From assembly GCA_037137755.1 (NCBI GenBank), contig JBAXJR010000039.1:1-21618 (forward strand): DNA of 21,618 bases, in the 5' to 3' direction. Position numbers and translations under genes: made by a program. The DNA comes from Methanomicrobiales archaeon (lineage in GTDB: Archaea > Halobacteriota > Methanomicrobia > Methanomicrobiales > Methanospirillaceae). Of this stretch, positions 1 to 6,458 are shown one piece after another. Numbering within the stretch: the first letter of the stretch is position 1; every line of letters starts with the position of its first letter. The notes under the pieces were generated by a model that was given only the letters and a program-made list of their open reading frames with translations, was not told the origin of the DNA and ran no database searches.

Positions 1-536
1 TCGTAGGTCACAGAATCCAGTACCAGTTTTCGTACGCGTTCAGGGTGATCGATAACCAGTTGCTGGGAGACCGATGAACCCATCGAGACCCCGTATACAT
101 TCATGCTGTCATAGCCAAGTGCAGGAATCAGTTTTGCGGCATCATCTGCATAGAGTGCAATAGTGGGTGACCCATTATATTCGCTACTGTAGCCCATTCC
201 CCGGTGATCATAGGTATATACATGGTATTTCGAGGCGAGGATGCCAATGAACGTCTCATTCCAGTCATCAATGGTGTCCCCGAATCCCTGGGCCATCAGG
301 AGTGGTTCACCTGCTCCGAATTCCCGGTATCCCAGCGTAACTCCATTGACCTTTACGTATTGGACAGGGGTTGCGTTGAACGATACAGGCTGGGGCGCCC
401 TGATTACCGGAGTTACGGGTTGGCTGGTGACGGTACCGGGTGTGCCGGGGGTACCCGGGGCACTTGTACACCCTGCCGTCACGAGGAGGCAGATCATTAC
501 AGCGATTACCAGGGTTGAAATATGTGTCTTGTCCAT
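1..536 (-). CDS. Alpha/beta-fold hydrolase with lipoprotein-type signal peptide (partial; runs off the left edge)
   Basis: Not in the ORF track because it has no stop in the window. Manual translation from the ATG at 536 gives MDKTHISTLVIAVMICLLVTAGCTSAPGTPGTPGT...YVKVNGVTLGYREFGAGEPLLMAQGFG...YDHRGMGYS...YGVSMGSS...HPERVRKLVLDS. It has a G-x-S-x-G nucleophile elbow (GVSMG), a DHRGMG motif and a TAGC lipobox. Confidence 0.88.
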   Translation of the reverse strand, partial: MDKTHISTLVIAVMICLLVTAGCTSAPGTPGTPGTVTSQPVTPVIRAPQPVSFNATPVQYVKVNGVTLGYREFGAGEPLLMAQGFGDTIDDWNETFIGILASKYHVYTYDHRGMGYSSEYNGSPTIALYADDAAKLIPALGYDSMNVYGVSMGSSVSQQLVIDHPERVRKLVLDSVTY

Positions 537-699
537 GAACGATCCTCTTAACCGATTAATTGTGAAGTAACTTGTATTAACTATCAAAATTTAAAAGTTC
601 GGTTATTTTTTTGTATTTTTTGTTATCCCGGTGAACGGTGTACTATGTTAAAAAACTTTAAAAAACGATAAGAAAATTGGTATGAAAAAAGGATACAAA

Positions 700-740
700 A
701 AGCGAACACAGGCGTTCGTTGTGCGTACATTGGAACCGGT
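700..740 (+). repeat. Degenerate intergenic repeat, copy 0 (block A only)
   Basis: 713-730 CGTTCGTTGTGCGTACAT matches 2608-2625 CGTTCGTTTTGCGTACAT at 17/18. Both are followed shortly by CCGGT. This copy abuts the histidine kinase stop codon. Confidence 0.75.
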
Positions 741-2464
741 TATGATTTGATGCGATACATCCCAGTCGGCACGGTAATTTCGAAGCGTGCTCCTTCCCCG
801 TAAACACCTGTTTCTTCGATTCCGATACCCGTTATTGACATGATTTCCTGGATTAAAAACATGCCAAAACCCGTGTTTTTCCCAAAACCCCGTAAGAATA
901 TCTTACTTTTCTCGTCAGGTGGAATACCTCCTCCGTTATCCTCGTACAGTATTTTCAGGCAGTTCTCTCCTTGGATTGTTTTTAATGTAATCTTCGTTAC
1001 CTGCCTGCCATGCCTGATGGAGTTATCAATCAGGTTGTAAAATACCCTGTCGAGTAAAGGATCGGTAAAAATCTCCAGGTCAGTCAGATCGGAGGAAAAC
1101 ACAATCCCGCTGTCGGAAAACGACTTGCAAGCATTTTCAAAGGATACCAATGGGTTCAACCATACCGGTTTATGGAGCCCGAGTTCCTGGTAATCGCGTG
1201 TGAAATGGAGCAAATCTTTTATTTTAACCGATGCATTCTGTCCTTTCTTTATATAATCAAGTTTAATCTTGTCGTTCTCATTCGTCTCCAGGATATCCAG
1301 GTACCCTATAATGATGGTGAGCTGGTTGAGAATATCATGCCGGGTAATGCTGGAAAGGAGTTGTAATTTTTGGTTATAAGTCTTTAATGCCTCCTCGGCA
1401 TGCTTTTTCTCGGTGATATCCCGGAAATTCAGTATTCTCCCAATTATTTCACTGTTAACCCGGTATGGGGTGATAGTTACGTCGTAAATACGTCCTGTAC
1501 TGAATGCAAGTGTGGTTTCCAGCGTTTGTTCAGTTGAAGAGGTGTCGTGGATTAAAGTGTGCTCCAGTAATTCCTGGTTAGTTACCTGATTTTTAATAAG
1601 AACCACGATGTTGATTTTATTATCATACATATCACGATGACCGGATATGTCCAGGATATGGTCAGCAGCAGTGTTGGAATCCCTGATCATACCCTCAAAA
1701 TCAACTACGACGATACCGTCCGGGGAAGATTCAATGGTCGCATTTTTCAATGCGTTTGTCTTTTCGAGATCGTAAGTACGTTCCTGAACAAGCGCTTCAA
1801 GGTGTTCTTTGTAAGAAATTAATTCGTATTCACCCTCTTTCCTCCTGTCAATCGACTGGGTGAGTGCTCCAAGGACCAGCAATCCGAAAAAGATAAGACC
1901 AAAAACCTGAATCTTGTCCAACAGCGAAACCAGGTTTGTTTGAGATCCTGCTGGAGGATACAGGAAAAAGGCACTTATCGTTATAGCTGATACCAGCAGC
2001 GAGAAAAAGACCAGTTCTCCAGGGTAGGATATTGGAAATAAATTTCGTTTCTTTATAAAAAAAACTGAGATACTGGCAATAAACGTCCCTATTATGAGAA
2101 ATATGTCTGGTGGTGATATGGTCCCATGCTGGAGAAGGAATATTGAAATAAGGAAAATACACGTTGTGATCCCGGCGGATAGTATTCCGCCCACAAATCC
2201 CGCAAGTGGGATAATGATACCATTTATGCCCATTCCCGTCTGTTGTGCCCCTGACTGGGAGATCAGGACTGCAGTCAATGCAGCAAAACCAAAAAGAATC
2301 CCAACAATGACCCGGAAAGCATTTTTTTTCAGGAGGAATATCCTGTCAGGGATGAAATTATAAAAAAAGACGATCAGGATTAATAAGGCAATACTCTGAA
2401 TCCCGCTCTGGTATAACCCAAGTAACTGTGAACCATATGCCTGGGGTGCAAACGCCGGATCCAT
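740..2464 (-). CDS. Membrane sensor histidine kinase (multi-TM LytS/5TM-like N-terminus, PAS-like domain, HisKA, HATPase_c)
   Basis: About 200 hydrophobic N-terminal residues, then a coiled coil (LEALVQERT) and a PAS-like region (SSPDGIVVVD...FRDITEKK). H-box TRHDILNQL, N-box NLIDNSIRHG, G1 DNGGGIP, G2 GFGKNTGFGM. ATG 2464 is preferred over TTG 2470 because AGAGGA lies 7 nt upstream. Confidence 0.93.
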   Translation of the reverse strand: MDPAFAPQAYGSQLLGLYQSGIQSIALLILIVFFYNFIPDRIFLLKKNAFRVIVGILFGFAALTAVLISQSGAQQTGMGINGIIIPLAGFVGGILSAGITTCIFLISIFLLQHGTISPPDIFLIIGTFIASISVFFIKKRNLFPISYPGELVFFSLLVSAITISAFFLYPPAGSQTNLVSLLDKIQVFGLIFFGLLVLGALTQSIDRRKEGEYELISYKEHLEALVQERTYDLEKTNALKNATIESSPDGIVVVDFEGMIRDSNTAADHILDISGHRDMYDNKINIVVLIKNQVTNQELLEHTLIHDTSSTEQTLETTLAFSTGRIYDVTITPYRVNSEIIGRILNFRDITEKKHAEEALKTYNQKLQLLSSITRHDILNQLTIIIGYLDILETNENDKIKLDYIKKGQNASVKIKDLLHFTRDYQELGLHKPVWLNPLVSFENACKSFSDSGIVFSSDLTDLEIFTDPLLDRVFYNLIDNSIRHGRQVTKITLKTIQGENCLKILYEDNGGGIPPDEKSKIFLRGFGKNTGFGMFLIQEIMSITGIGIEETGVYGEGARFEITVPTGMYRIKS

Positions 2465-2589
2465 ATCCAAATCCTCTGTTTAACATATTATGGAAGGATT
2501 TTTGATACAACTAATATAGATCTCCATTATATTATAGTACCTTGAGCTAAATAGGGTGGTGCTCAGGATACGAATATAAAAAAATCAGG

Positions 2590-2708
2590 TAAAACGCGGA
2601 GCAGATACGTTCGTTTTGCGTACATAGTCCGGTATTTATTGCACCTCCACGCTCATGAATCTGCTAACCGGTGATTTCATCAGGGTTCCTGCATATTTTT
2701 TATTTAAT
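2590..2708 (+). repeat. Degenerate intergenic repeat, copy 1 (block A + 13-bp spacer + block B)
   Basis: Block A 2608-2625 and block B 2639-2704 (TTGCACCTCCACGCTCATGAATCTGCTAACCGGTGATTTCATCAGGGTTCCTGCATATTTTTTATT). Block B is 51/66 identical, ungapped, to 5966-6031. Confidence 0.85.
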
Positions 2709-2802
2709 CTGGAGAATTTTAATATTGGACACTGTTAATTGAGATATTCTACAACTATCGTAATAGTCAGTGGGCCTTCCATAAAAGTAACTCAATTCAG
2801 TT

Positions 2803-3552
2803 CTATTTTCTCGCAGCAATGAGGTAATATGTCTTACCGGGTGCAAATCGCCGGTACCAGGGCTGTTGTGGTTTCTGCATGTCCTGGATGTACATTAAAT
2901 CCCGGTAGCGGATACCGGTGAATCCGGCGTTTTCCAAGTCGGATACCATTGTTTCCTTCGGTACTCCCCCATCATAGGGGAGCTGGCTCCTGAGTTTTTC
3001 ATCATAATGGCCGCCATGGGTGTGACCGAAAATCTTTGCCAGCCCGTCGCTCACTATCCGCTTCGCCCGGATTGAAACGCTATTATCCTTCCAGATACCC
3101 TCGATGATGAGGACAACACCCCCTTTTTTTAATACACGGTGCCATTCCTCCAGGGCAATCTCCGGGTGAGGGAGTGTCCAGACGAGGTGCCGGTTGACAA
3201 CCACGTCAAAAGATCCGTCATCGAACGGAAGGTGTTCGGCATCCCCCGTCCTCAGCTCAATCGGAAGGTTATGTGCATCTGCTTTCTCGCGTGCTTTTGC
3301 AATCATCGCTTCCGAAAGGTCGACCCCGGTAACCTGGTGTCCCATCTCGGCAAACAGGAGGCCTATAACAGCTGTTCCGCACCCTACATCGAGTACCCTT
3401 TGTGGCGATACTGGTATGTTCCGGGCCAGTTCCTGTTTCCATGCGACTTTCTCCGCCTCAGTCCCGATCCCGTGGCCCGGACAGCTGTCATACATAACTG
3501 AGGAGTGGTCCCAGCTCTTCCGGACTGCATCCTTGATCTCATGGTCAATCAT
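2803..3552 (-). CDS. Class I SAM-dependent methyltransferase (UbiE/Methyltransf_11-like)
   Basis: Motif I VLDVGCGTA, post-I GVDLSEAM, motif II GDAEHLPFDDGSFDVV, motif III RVLKKGG; 249 aa. Confidence 0.93.
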   Translation of the reverse strand: MIDHEIKDAVRKSWDHSSVMYDSCPGHGIGTEAEKVAWKQELARNIPVSPQRVLDVGCGTAVIGLLFAEMGHQVTGVDLSEAMIAKAREKADAHNLPIELRTGDAEHLPFDDGSFDVVVNRHLVWTLPHPEIALEEWHRVLKKGGVVLIIEGIWKDNSVSIRAKRIVSDGLAKIFGHTHGGHYDEKLRSQLPYDGGVPKETMVSDLENAGFTGIRYRDLMYIQDMQKPQQPWYRRFAPGKTYYLIAARK

Positions 3553-3707
3553 ACTGATACCTTAATGGTGTATGGTCAATTTTTTATGATTATTTTGAGA
3601 ATCCAGATAAATATTCCCTGGATCTCTCTTCTATACCGGGTCCGGGTTATCCCGGTCGGTGATTGTATCCATCGTTTAGATGTTTTCTCTGATAGGGTAA
3701 AAACCAC

Positions 3708-3826
3708 TAATAACCGGAGATGAGTGTTCTTATTGCATACCTTGCACTTTTGAAATTGTACCTATATGCTCATCAATCTGCCATTCAGGGAATTGATCCA
3801 CGTTTTCTGGCCCGGTTTTTCATTTA
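3708..3826 (+). repeat. Degenerate intergenic repeat, copy 2 (block A + 13-bp spacer + block B)
   Basis: 3725-3742 TGTTCTTATTGCATACCT is 13/18 identical to block A. 3756-3798 TTGTACCTATATGCTCATCAATCTGCCATTCAGGGAATTGATC is 31/43 identical to block B of both copy 1 and copy 3. The A-B spacing (13 bp) is the same as in copy 1. Confidence 0.75.
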
Positions 3827-4016
3827 TCCGCGCAATAAGGTCAGGCATCTTTTGGTTTTGTAAGACATCTCGTCTTCCGGCTCGGCCCGGAGTTTTGTTA
3901 CGGCCCATGTCAGTTTTCACCTAACCTGTGGCTCTGGATACGCACCGGCATCATATAGAGAGTACTGCCCAAACATAACCAGGATCCCCTTCCATTTCGC
4001 ACCGTTATTTCTCTTG

Positions 4017-4978
4017 TTACCCGAGTATCGCGTTGAAAAGTAACCCGGTCAGTGTAATGGCAACAAACAGGATTCCAACAAATATTGCAATCAATTTGAT
4101 CTTAATTACCCGCCTGAGAATAATCATCTCCGGAAGTGAGAGGCCGACGACCGCCATCATAAAGGCGAGGGCAGTCCCGATGGCCATACCTTTCGAGGTA
4201 AGTACCTGCATGATCGGGAGCATCCCGGCAGCATTCGAGTAGAGAGGGATTCCTATCAGCACGGCAATAGGGACTGCAAGGGGATTATCAGGTCCCGCGA
4301 TATTCAATAGGAAATCTTCCGGGGCATATCCGTGAATTATCGCACCAATGGCGATACCGATGAGGATATAGGGCAGGACTTTGAGGGTGATACTTTAGAC
4401 TCAACAACGGCAAAGTCGAACCGGTCCCGCCATGTCATCGTTTTATCGGGTTGGTCATACATCTTGCATTTGTAAACAAACTCTTCGACCTGGCTTTCAA
4501 GGCGGAGCCGCCCGATAATAATTCCTGCAACAATTGCAATGATCAGGCCTGATACAATGTATAGCGCTGCAATCTGCCAGCCGAATAATGCGAACAGCAT
4601 TGCAACCGCAACCTCATTGATCATTGGTGAGGAAATCAGGAACGAGAAGGTAATCCCTAATGGCACACCCGATTCAACGAACCCGATAAACAGTGGGACC
4701 GCGGAACAGGAGCAGAACGGTGTCGGGATCCCGAGCAACGCCGCAAGAACATTTCCAACACCTTCAGTCCTCCCGCCGACCAATTTTTTCACCTTCTGCG
4801 GGGTGATGTAGGTTCTGATGATCCCCACAATGAATACGATGATCGCGAGGAGCGCAGTAACCTTGATTGAATCATAGATGAAGAAATTGACCGACGACGC
4901 AAGCGGACTTCCTGCAGTCATTCCCAATACCGTGTACGTCAGCCAGTCGGCAAACTGCTGCAGGTAATCCGGGATCAT
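4017..4978 (-). pseudogene. arsP: ArsP/DUF318-family permease split by a single-base frameshift near 4394 (pseudogene or sequencing error)
   Basis: The N-terminal part (4337-4978) has TPFCSCSAVP and FLISSPMINE. The C-terminal part continues in another frame as ITLKVLPYILIGIAIGAIIHGYAPEDFL...GIPLYSNAAG...GLSLPEMIILRRV to the stop at 4017. Adding one base at GAG TCT AAA [+1]GT ATC ACC restores a 320-aa protein. Confidence 0.85.
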
Positions 4979-5038
4979 AAAATGATAACTTCCCCATGAA
5001 ATGTTGATTCATCCAAAGTACTGTTCCCCGATTGCGTA

Positions 5039-5428
5039 CTATACGCACTGACTTTTCACTGCATTGACGACCATTTCAAGATCACACTCATCAAATACCG
5101 GTCCCGGAACTTTTTCAATGCCAAGGTCTGTGATAACCACATAGTCATCAATGGTAAGCCCCTGTGCCACCATAATTTTCTTTCCACAGGCAAGAGGGCA
5201 GCCATCGATGACAATCCGCCGGTCTGCTGCTTTTCCTAATCCCATAAGTTTTTCTACGGACCCACCTATACCTGCGAGACACGATCCGCTTCCGAATCCT
5301 TCATTTGTCAGGCGGCAGGCCGCAGCGTTTGATAATTGTCCAACGTTCGACCCCAGGCCGGAACAGGAATAAATTATGGTGGTTTTTCCTTCCGATCCAC
5401 AGTTACAGGATGATTGTTGCTGGTTCAT
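5039..5428 (-). CDS. DGC-domain putative zinc-binding protein
   Basis: Motifs YSCSGLGSNVGQ, SCLAGIG and IDGCPLACG. The likely start is ATG 5428 (MNQQQSSCNCGS), because the longer ORF-track start at 5488 overlaps the promoter region. Confidence 0.88.
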   Translation of the reverse strand: MNQQQSSCNCGSEGKTTIIYSCSGLGSNVGQLSNAAACRLTNEGFGSGSCLAGIGGSVEKLMGLGKAADRRIVIDGCPLACGKKIMVAQGLTIDDYVVITDLGIEKVPGPVFDECDLEMVVNAVKSQCV

Positions 5429-5440
5429 GTAAATCACGGT

Positions 5441-5456
5441 TTCAACTTTTATTGAA
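5441..5456. promoter_or_regulatory. Candidate ArsR operator 1 (TTCAA-N6-TTGAA, i.e. TTCA-N8-TGAA)
   Basis: Palindrome TTCAA CTTTTA TTGAA in the 76-bp divergent intergenic region, just upstream of the DGC gene start. Confidence 0.55.
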
Positions 5457-5485
5457 GTCTTGATGTAAAGAGTAATATATTTTAT

Positions 5486-5507
5486 CATTTCATATATTTT
5501 TGAAATG
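5486..5507. promoter_or_regulatory. Candidate ArsR operator 2 (CATTTCA-N8-TGAAATG) overlapping the arsR start codon
   Basis: Perfect 7-bp inverted repeat with the same TTCA-N8-TGAA core as 5441-5456. An AT-rich TATA-like stretch (TAATATATTT, about 5473-5482) lies between the two sites. Confidence 0.6.
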
Positions 5508-5933
5508 ACGGGGCCGATGGTAAAAGAAATATTAACAATTCCACCTGTTATCCAGGAAGAACTGGACAGGAGAGGTGGGTTGAACGGATTGATTTCACGG
5601 CTTCCTGACGACCAGGAACTTCAAAATCTTGTCGAGGTCCACCATGCCCTTTCTGACCTGATCAGGATGAAGATCCTTCATCTTCTCACCTCTCAACCGC
5701 TTTGTGTTTGTGTAATCAGGGAAATTATTGGAATTTCTGATTCTAACCTATCATATCATCTTAATGTACTGAAAAAAGCAGGCATAATCGTTGGAGAACA
5801 ACAAGGGAGCTGGATAATATATAGTCTCACCGAAAGGGGAAAGAAATACAGCATTGTCGCGCAGGATTCTGATAAGGTGGTCCATGAATCCAGACTTATG
5901 TGCTACAATGAACCCCGGAAGAATAAGAAGTAG
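5505..5933 (+). CDS. arsR: ArsR/SmtB-family metalloregulatory transcription factor
   Basis: HALSDLIRMKILHLL...PLCVCVIRE (a CVC site like the ArsR ELCVCDL motif) and SNLSYHLNVLKKAGII...GSWIIYSLT winged HTH. Divergent from DGC-arsP. Confidence 0.9.
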   Translation: MTGPMVKEILTIPPVIQEELDRRGGLNGLISRLPDDQELQNLVEVHHALSDLIRMKILHLLTSQPLCVCVIREIIGISDSNLSYHLNVLKKAGIIVGEQQGSWIIYSLTERGKKYSIVAQDSDKVVHESRLMCYNEPRKNKK

Positions 5934-5965
5934 ATTATTGAAATAGGTAGTAAGTTGAGTACTCG

Positions 5966-6031
5966 TTGCATCTGTAAGCCAATTAATCTGCTAATCAGGG
6001 ATTTCGTCAGGTTTCCAGCACATTTCTTATT
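5966..6031 (+). repeat. Degenerate intergenic repeat, copy 3 (block B only)
   Basis: TTGCATCTGTAAGCCAATTAATCTGCTAATCAGGGATTTCGTCAGGTTTCCAGCACATTTCTTATT is 51/66 identical to 2639-2704 with no gaps. Confidence 0.85.
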
Positions 6032-6116
6032 CTTGTTCATCCCGGCATCCGGCGGTTTGAAAATAATACATCTGGTTCATATCCCTGGCTGCTCATAATG
6101 AACGATTGACTACATT

Positions 6117-6458
6117 ATGAATCAGCCACCTGATGTCCCGGTTATTATCCTCTCCACTGCATCTCCTGACAATGCGAAGACCATTGCGCGAGCCCTCGTA
6201 GAAGAAAGGATTGCCGCGTGCGTGAACATGACCGGAATTTCGTCATATTACCACTGGAAAGGGGAATTCTGCGATGATGCCGAGACCCTCCTGATTATCA
6301 AGACAATGGATTCCAGAAAGAGCGAGGTGATGGACGCCATCCGCCGCCTCCATACGTACGAACTCCCTGAAATGATTGTAATTCCCATTACCGGGGGTTT
6401 TCCTCCGTACCTGGCTTGGCTTAACGATGAACTGGCGAAGGATAGTCCGTCCGGCTGA
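6117..6458 (+). CDS. cutA: Divalent-cation tolerance protein CutA
   Basis: IARALVEERIAACVN, SYYHWKGE, ETLLIIKT, LHTYELPEMI and YLAWL are canonical CutA motifs; 113 aa. Confidence 0.95.
   Translation: MNQPPDVPVIILSTASPDNAKTIARALVEERIAACVNMTGISSYYHWKGEFCDDAETLLIIKTMDSRKSEVMDAIRRLHTYELPEMIVIPITGGFPPYLAWLNDELAKDSPSG

Follow-up and report, generated by a model that had tools for sequence, protein, structure and literature searches.

How do small sets of accessory genes enter and leave an archaeal chromosome at a site that encodes no mobility gene of its own? Little is known about such turnover in methanogens, or in archaea generally, when obvious conjugative elements are absent. The question is raised by contig C39 of a Methanomicrobiales genome from an uncultured genus (G000; 2.64 Mb in 106 contigs), which was analyzed over its entire length of 21,618 nt (the window). 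Upstream of cutA, unrelated gene modules are separated by same-orientation copies of a repeated unit, and the window contains the right-hand half of a hypervariable accessory-gene island that occupies the divergent intergenic region between an aminotransferase gene and cutA. The explanation that we favor, and consider reasonably probable, is that modules enter, leave, and change places through recombination between the units, driven mainly by homology.

The repeat units are genuine and composite

The initial annotation of the window described a bipartite element (blocks A and B) whose same-orientation copies delimit unrelated modules in the order A-[histidine kinase]-AB-[methyltransferase]-AB-[arsP, DGC, arsR]-B-cutA; the repeat is real and the order is correct. 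The whole G000 assembly was searched with nhmmer profiles whose training copies all came from other genomes. A profile of block B matched 5946-6036 (E 6.5e-12), 2615-2703 (E 2.7e-11), and 3732-3824 (E 2.7e-8), and its best match to anything other than a copy had an E value of 0.86. A profile that joins block A to a different right arm (H, see below) matched 661-810 at E 3.2e-36, and one that spans A and B matched 2558-2705 at E 4.2e-19 and 3709-3825 at E 2.2e-7. The four copies of the window thus have genome-wide E values of 2.7e-8 to 3e-36. The longest direct repeat of the window is the pair 2632-2704/5959-6031 (73 nt, 75% identity), and 704-730/2599-2625 form another at 81% identity. Block A at 713-730 agrees with 2608-2625 at 17/18 positions, and 2608-2625 agrees with 3725-3742 at 13/18; block B at 2639-2704 and 5966-6031 agree at 51/66, and each matches 3756-3798 at 31/43. 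These counts reproduce the original ones with the exception of the first and third copies of block A, which are identical at 12/18 positions rather than 13/18. Relative to cutA, a single strand carries 19/19 A matches and 11/11 B matches (E<0.01, 8 oriented loci).

An alignment of 30 unit copies from G000 and related genomes reveals a composite unit of ~100-190 nt, in which either of two unrelated right arms, H or B, follows a left part, P-O. The ~110-bp A/B element was therefore a real feature drawn too small, as the unit begins ~50 nt to the left of block A. P-O is conserved over ~70 nt. Within it lies an imperfect palindrome of 38 nt (691-728), whose 15-17-nt arms include a 2-nt bulge and are separated by a 6-nt spacer; block A (713-730) is its right arm. 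The element had been said to lack dif symmetry; the palindrome does provide dyad symmetry, and this region shows a local hairpin when folded. Folding of whole units is no better than that of shuffled sequences (DNA z -0.11; RNA z 0.61 and -0.41). Compensatory changes were not found in the palindrome, whose inner stem is invariant and whose outer-stem changes are uncompensated, a result that has no bearing on structure. A T run follows the palindrome on the minus strand, which is the strand of most module genes. Judged by these sequence features, the palindrome and T run probably also act as a terminator that insulates the modules, a role compatible with all of the explanations considered here.

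Arm H consists of ~85 nt of a histidine-kinase 3' end (minus strand) and a T/A run. It encodes the end of the HATPase_c domain, and its coding part matches kinase paralogues on other contigs. In three intact array kinases arm H is the genuine gene end, and unit 1 of the window continues into the kinase 3' end (731-810), the functional form of the arm. Elsewhere it is a noncoding relic that ends at one same position beside at least nine unrelated modules. The element had been called noncoding, which is true of the relics but not of copy 1, where block A runs into the 3' end of the kinase gene; the earlier alternative that the copies are relics of repeated homologous duplication finds support insofar as arm H derives from the 3' end of a kinase gene. 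Conservation is far higher in the P-O core and in an 18-nt block of H than in the remainder of the unit, and units at orthologous positions are conserved while the adjacent intergenic DNA diverges.

Arm B, the original block B, precedes the methyltransferase, the ars module, and cutA. Several origins for it were considered and rejected. Alignment scores between arms B and H lie within those of dinucleotide shuffles (24 pairs, p 0.04-0.97), and scores against the aminotransferase-cutA spacers of the array-free genomes G008, G001, and G009, beyond their O core, are likewise at shuffle level; a 10-mer common to arm B and these native spacers is not significant. A coding origin was also discarded, since mismatches by codon position number 5, 7, and 6 (hand count) and show no codon periodicity, as the initial annotation had remarked. 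A 36-codon frame across P-O-H was dismissed because its ATG is gone in the hydrolase-linked copies. At unit 4 of the window, no P-O is detectable by profile.

A hypervariable island with fixed flanks

The window shares its first 55 nt (1-55), inside a hydrolase gene, with the end of contig C40, which makes C40 the left neighbor of the window; this assembly break falls inside a module and not inside a repeat. C40 carries genes for a HAD hydrolase, RadA, an OB-fold protein, a LysA-like decarboxylase, and the aminotransferase, followed by a partial unit, a module of TrmB and a limonene-epoxide-hydrolase-like protein (LEH), a unit, a 1334-aa response-regulator/PAS kinase, a unit, and the hydrolase. 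Because the array continues on C40, the full G000 island, from the aminotransferase to cutA, comprises six modules along with seven units that all have the same orientation. In order, the modules are TrmB-LEH, large kinase, hydrolase, kinase, methyltransferase, and ars. They hold one to three genes on both strands, and several include regulators (ArsR, TrmB). Further copies to the left of the window had been suggested together with a tyrosine or serine recombinase: the copies are there, and C40 carries neither type of recombinase.

The archaeal strand-exchange protein RadA (C40 9391-10368) is encoded four genes to the left of the array in every genome examined. Its nearness to the array is probably a coincidence, though one worth noting for a homology-driven process.

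Twelve same-genus genomes with cutA were available, and the region is readable in eight of them; these kin genomes are not independent. The right flank (cutA, DUF1890, and 2-oxoacid:ferredoxin oxidoreductase) is conserved, with cutA adjoining the island locus in 12/12 of the genomes searched. The same two flanks enclose differing module sets in 8 same-genus genomes and 10 metagenome contigs. Genome G004 has TrmB-LEH-HTH248, hydrolase, aquaporin, and methyltransferase; G007 has unk131, HTH248, and TerC; G003 has a kinase with a DDE transposase insertion, hydrolase, HXXEE, and an aldo-keto reductase; G010 has hydrolase, radical SAM, and methyltransferase, then ars; and G012 has TrmB-LEH-HTH248 ... 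hydrolase, then HXXEE and unk141, then methyltransferase. The hydrolase module occupies other positions in the congeners than it does in G000. Across the genus at least 16 different gene modules are found, and the cargo includes sensor kinases, regulators, hydrolases, methyltransferase, and metal or metalloid transporters. The presence of an ArsP-type permease with ArsR, an aquaporin, TerC, an aldo-keto reductase, hydrolases, and sensor kinases suggests that the island serves local adaptation. The view of the initial annotation that a hotspot next to cutA houses unrelated, element-bounded modules is thus borne out.

In G003 (locus L013, contig C340), the transposase gene at 5152-6360 is of the DDE_Tnp_ISAZ013 family (Pfam E 3e-145) and splits the large response-regulator/PAS kinase.

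Three more distant congeners (G001, G008, and G009) are free of the array. In G008 the site is empty, with the aminotransferase ATG and the cutA ATG 125 nt apart, whereas the flanks of G001 and G009 are separated by 1.8 kb and 2.6 kb of other DNA that contains no units. These unit-free inserts indicate that the intergenic spacer is a hotspot that receives insertions of more than one type. In all three genomes the aminotransferase ATG is directly preceded by a 14-nt O core, and the A profile weakly matches this core (E 0.012 in G001, 0.1 in G008, and 0.023 in G009). Wherever an array-bearing locus extends as far as the aminotransferase (9/9), its leftmost copy lacks P and opens with the O core. 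The O core is native to the 5' edge of the aminotransferase gene. At the opposite end, the last unit of G003 retains P-O with neither H nor B.

The extra DNA in G001 (L014) and G009 (L016) is inserted ~70 nt from the aminotransferase ATG. At the leftmost partial unit of G000 (C40 13155-14345), the kinase-relic frame reads stop-free into the aminotransferase open reading frame (ORF), as it does in metagenome locus L032, and ~24 nt before the aminotransferase ATG the relic has an A/T-rich stretch; from its sequence, the leftmost unit may now supply the aminotransferase promoter.

Within G000, P-O and B are confined to C39 and C40, that is, to one locus, so that the copies are not scattered over the genome, and the housekeeping part of the window holds none, as had been observed before. 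Rfam 15 covariance models gave no match at E<=1 over the whole window. Wider scans looked for exact matches to an IUPAC pattern that represents the P-O core. In a set of 185,579 species genomes the pattern occurs at 7 loci in 4 same-genus metagenome-assembled genomes (MAGs) only, all at the island; viral contigs yielded no match, and 10 metagenome loci that match add further arrangements. This distribution bears on the idea that the unit is a small non-autonomous mobile repeat, akin to a miniature inverted-repeat transposable element (MITE) or to repetitive extragenic palindromes and bacterial interspersed mosaic elements (REP/BIME), which inserted into existing intergenic regions. Such a repeat would likewise be short, noncoding, palindromic, and intergenic, and G003 and G006 do have a few copies elsewhere, at a second locus. 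However, every copy in G000 resides at one locus in one orientation rather than dispersed, the pattern scan of species genomes found the repeat only at the island of same-genus MAGs, the alignment shows neither terminal inverted repeats nor target duplications, a Y1 transposase of the REP-associated type (RAYT; PF01797) is absent from 5/5 array genomes, and the leftmost copy is partial and built on native sequence. We regard this origin as very improbable; it fits the data poorly.

Module boundaries coincide with units

Breakpoints, defined as the ends of long BLAST matches between window positions 600-6120 and eight congeners (n=19), lie inside a unit or <=70 nt away in 18/19 cases, the exception being 3580, which is 129 nt off. 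Units and their 70-nt margins cover ~20% of this interval. Six of the 19 breakpoints represent a shared boundary at 6068-6071, where synteny with 6 congeners starts, and are not independent. The comparison of the cutA-upstream locus that had been proposed thus finds module boundaries that coincide with the element. The cleanest example is G004, which differs from the window by the absence of exactly the ars module and one B copy (window 3808-6070). In G010, radical SAM replaces unit-kinase-unit, with breakpoints 41 and 66 nt outside the units and a short H-like remnant.

These observations fit a model in which the units are portable recombination sites. A module together with one unit would loop out or insert through unit-unit recombination (Campbell-type), and modules would be swapped by a double crossover in the two flanking units after DNA uptake. 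The arrangement as a whole fits an att-type scheme, with a native core at the left end, complete P-O-arm units inside, and an armless last unit in G003; given this arrangement, modules most likely enter and leave with one unit.

A different explanation is that the units are passive, either as terminators and insulators or as leftovers of kinase-cassette duplication whose bodies were replaced, with module variation arising from unrelated insertions and deletions. Arm H is indeed a true kinase 3' end that matches many paralogues in the genome, three intact array kinases end in it, the T run after the palindrome on the minus strand resembles a terminator, and some module junctions lack units. This explanation must nonetheless account for a relic end that is constant beside at least nine unrelated modules, which calls for one origin and subsequent spread with different cargo. 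It is also at odds with the position of all but one of the synteny breakpoints at units, with an ars difference of exactly one module and one unit, and with the conservation of orthologous units amid diverging intergenic DNA, including an 18-nt noncoding block unchanged in 25/30 copies. Passive units therefore fit the data poorly, and we consider them improbable.

Homology-driven exchange or a site-specific recombinase

Units that share one neighboring module but differ in the other were compared to locate the point at which left-associated sequence gives way to right-associated sequence. This switch point varies between units. In units with HXXEE on the left it falls at the P/O border, between the left palindrome arm and the spacer; in units with the hydrolase on the left it falls at the O/H border (end of O, window 730), and, independently of that comparison, a contig from sequencing run X6 matches the window up to 730 and beyond that point carries an H relic. 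In units with TrmB on the right the switch lies in mid-H, and in G004 and L033 it lies in mid-P. Because the switch points vary, homology-driven exchange is favored over a single fixed crossover. Strong within-genome homogenization of units was considered and rejected: the units flanking one module in L032 are near-identical (83/88), and within-genome identity is 81-94%, slightly above the between-genome median of 80%, so that the effect is weak.

No recombinase gene was found in or beside any array examined in G000 and its congeners, and the ORFs that flank the arrays in 5 congeners are housekeeping genes. G000 has 11 matches to the tyrosine-recombinase family PF00589, all of them off C39 and C40. 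The array-bearing genome G007 (83% complete) has a single PF00589 match, which is XerA-like, and this XerA-like protein is the only PF00589 member found in all of the genomes checked (6/6); in G000 it is encoded on contig C21. A serine recombinase is present in 1/5 array genomes. No second site with the half-sites of the palindrome was found outside the array in G000; a palindrome-like site on contig C20, 6 kb from an integrase gene, lies within a 609-codon ORF and was set aside as a chance match. Given the varying switch points and the lack of a recombinase at the locus, or of one common to the array genomes except the XerA-like protein, a homology-driven engine is better supported. That engine would be RadA-type homologous recombination together with gene conversion, rather than catalysis at a single crossover point.

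We also weighed site-specific gene capture and tandem accretion, in which a recombinase supplied in trans acts at the 38-nt palindrome or at the O core. Candidate enzymes are the XerA-like tyrosine recombinase, by comparison with pdif modules, or the integrase of a sporadically present mobile element; integrase-less modules, each composed of P-O, an arm, and cargo, would integrate serially at the native core upstream of the aminotransferase. Several features speak for this scenario. The palindrome (15-17-nt arms, 6-nt spacer) is within the geometry used in one search for tyrosine-recombinase sites, given in PMC2958812 as 11-15 bp arms and a 4-10 bp spacer. The native core in empty sites, the leftmost copy cut at the same base in 9/9 loci, and the armless P-O at the right end of G003 match the B-O-P' ... 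P-O-B' pattern of core and truncation expected of att sites. The HXXEE-left switch coincides exactly with the junction of left arm and spacer, the P-O core and the 18-nt H block are much better conserved than the rest, and the PF00589 matches on other G000 contigs offer possible enzymes. Against these stand the lack of a recombinase in or beside the array in the loci examined, the reduction of the PF00589 complement to the XerA-like match in G007 (at 83% completeness), the absence of Y1 transposases from 5/5 array genomes and of serine recombinases from all but one of them, and switch points that differ between units. Nor does G000 have outside the array a second half-site match, as a chromosomal dif site would be, and there are no copies on viral contigs; the truncated leftmost copy may also stem from one ancestral event. 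Both the trans-acting enzyme and serial integration at the native core seem to us possible but doubtful. A bolder version, in which a dedicated non-integron capture platform of archaea employs a host recombinase (possibly XerA, with no adjacent partner gene) that reads the palindrome and the arm motifs and inserts and excises integrase-less cassettes at the aminotransferase 5' edge, so that methanogens of the genus would possess a programmable array of accessory genes, we would call unlikely.

A number of observations weigh against the homology-driven explanation that we prefer. All sequences come from MAGs or metagenome assemblies, in which unit-sized repeats can cause mis-joins. No unit is present at the hydrolase/radical SAM junction of G010, the TerC/cutA junction of G007, or the LEH/HTH248 junction of G004. 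Most differences between genomes keep one module order, so that differential loss from a long ancestral array is possible. The order conflicts clearly only in metagenome contig L026, which reads HXXEE-unit-TrmB-LEH, whereas G012 has TrmB-LEH to the left of hydrolase-unit-HXXEE; L026 is 2.1 kb long and possibly a chimeric join within the repeat. The near-invariant 18-nt block within the noncoding H relic hints at a function tied to the exact sequence, which exchange by homology alone would not require, and the varying switch points could reflect later gene conversion over site-specific insertions. Contigs from four public sequencing runs, which provided only short unitigs, showed no excised circle, deletion junction, or module-skipping joint, the parts they leave uncovered being uninformative; since no excision or deletion junction was seen, we infer mobility from comparison alone. 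Finally, homology between units accounts for neither the origin of P nor the arrival of new genes between units.

Unit pieces also occur at a second locus, seen in G003 (L039, C350 4394-6356) and G006 (L037, C69 3158-3204), which likewise counts against the preferred explanation. It holds an O-H arm with a fragment of the aldo-keto reductase gene, HTH248, and P-O beside a CHAD/HD-domain gene and a CHASE4 kinase. In G000, positions 19687-20993 of contig C25 correspond to the HTH248 region of this locus at 93% identity and have no unit. The shared content suggests exchange between the island and the second locus.

Comparison with known module arrays

The resemblance to integrons and to clusters of attC sites lacking integrases (CALINs) is considerable. 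Unrelated modules are each followed by a same-orientation element of ~100-150 nt, and their content differs between close relatives; the repeats are specific to a species or genus and alike in sequence, as are those of the Vibrio cholerae chromosomal integron. An attC site is an imperfect palindrome across its whole length with RYYYAAC ... GTTRRRY ends, and integron cassettes are mostly single promoterless ORFs in one orientation. The present units, in contrast, are not attC hairpins and lack R''/R' core sites, as judged by folding and inspection only (fold z -0.11 to 0.61, core motifs absent), in agreement with the initial annotation. There is no IntI and no PF00589 match on C39 or C40, the modules are often multi-gene, run on both strands, and carry their own regulators, and one unit arm is a gene relic. 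Archaeal integrons have been described with the same structure and components as bacterial ones, namely attC with IntI or CALINs, and most of the cases reported there likewise have no integrase next to them (Ghaly et al., 2022; PMC9668308). Among the matches listed in a literature search, nothing relevant to such arrays in Methanomicrobiales or other archaea appeared.

The pdif modules of Acinetobacter plasmids are bounded by 28-bp Xer sites (11-6-11) in alternating inverted orientation. Like them, the island consists of small recombinase-less modules bounded by palindromic sites with a 6-nt spacer, sites that a housekeeping Xer protein could use. Unlike them, its units are all direct and much longer, with arms of 15-17 nt and a 2-nt bulge, and G000 has no dif-like site with the same half-sites elsewhere. 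In the minimal mobile elements of Neisseria, hypervariable regions are exchanged by homologous recombination in conserved flanks. The likeness here lies in differing gene sets between two conserved genes, the lack of a mobility gene, and exchange by homology after DNA uptake; the difference is that internal repeated units add homology that would permit modules to be exchanged, deleted, and reordered one by one.

In function, the island is closest to those that grow by tandem accretion at a single attachment site. Cis-mobilizable elements (CIMEs) show a similar tandem accretion at one att site. In the tycheposon islands of Prochlorococcus, successive integrations are described as pushing older elements inwards and leaving partial-tRNA repeats (bioRxiv 10.1101/2020.12.28.424599). 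As in these systems, a fixed-site island consists of cargo segments separated by direct repeats, many segments lack an integrase, and the repeats share a core with the unoccupied target. Here, however, the target is the 5' edge of a protein gene and not a tRNA, the repeats are composite and 100-190 nt long, no integrase lies beside any unit in the genomes and the viral or metagenome contigs searched, and the switch points are not fixed.

The locus offers a clean natural example of accessory-gene turnover, with fixed flanks, an empty site, at least 16 modules, and a unit at nearly every junction. If the units are recombination substrates, they would constitute a simple form of cassette exchange that requires no recombinase at the locus and might be reusable as a landing pad. 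Should a recombinase act in trans, the island would represent a second, non-integron kind of cassette system, in Archaea.

Features of the window

The units, modules, and first flanking gene of the window are listed in Table 1.

Table 1. Units and genes in the island part of the window and at its right border.
Feature	Positions	Strand	Basis and remarks
Alpha/beta-hydrolase, 5' part	3..587	-	Module 3; Pfam Abhydrolase_1 E 3e-17; rest on contig C40
Unit 1, P-O part (palindrome 691-728, block A 713-730)	661..730	+	A+H profile; local hairpin
PAS/HATPase_c sensor histidine kinase	740..2470	-	Module 4; Pfam HATPase_c 1e-13, PAS 7e-5
Unit 2: diverged P, O (block A 2608-2625), arm B 2626-2717	2558..2717	+	A+B and B profiles
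Class I SAM-dependent methyltransferase	2803..3552	-	Module 5; Pfam Methyltransf_11 7e-29
Unit 3: diverged P-O (block A 3725-3742), arm B 3744-3836	3709..3836	+	A+B and B profiles
Module 6 (ArsP_1 permease, DGC-domain protein, ArsR-family regulator)	4017..5933	both	Pfam
ArsP_1 permease	4017-4978	-	Module 6; in two pieces, 4017-4307 and 4337-4978
DGC-domain protein	5039-5488	-	Module 6
ArsR-family regulator	5505-5933	+	Module 6
Unit 4: arm B alone	5946..6047	+	B profile E 6.5e-12; last unit before conserved flank
cutA	6117..6458	+	Pfam CutA1 2.8e-32; first gene of conserved right flank

The methyltransferase scores under all NCBIfam cut-offs, and no substrate is assigned to it. Comparison with G010, where the gene is intact (338 aa), shows that a 1-nt deletion near 4393 breaks the ArsP_1 gene; an extra T at the break (4337-4400) is present in a contig of run X11, and the split gene is either a pseudogene or an assembly error. 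The G+C content of the island (601-6000) is 39-52%, with ~41% across the kinase, versus ~52% in the rest of the window; the low value is consistent with accessory or imported DNA.

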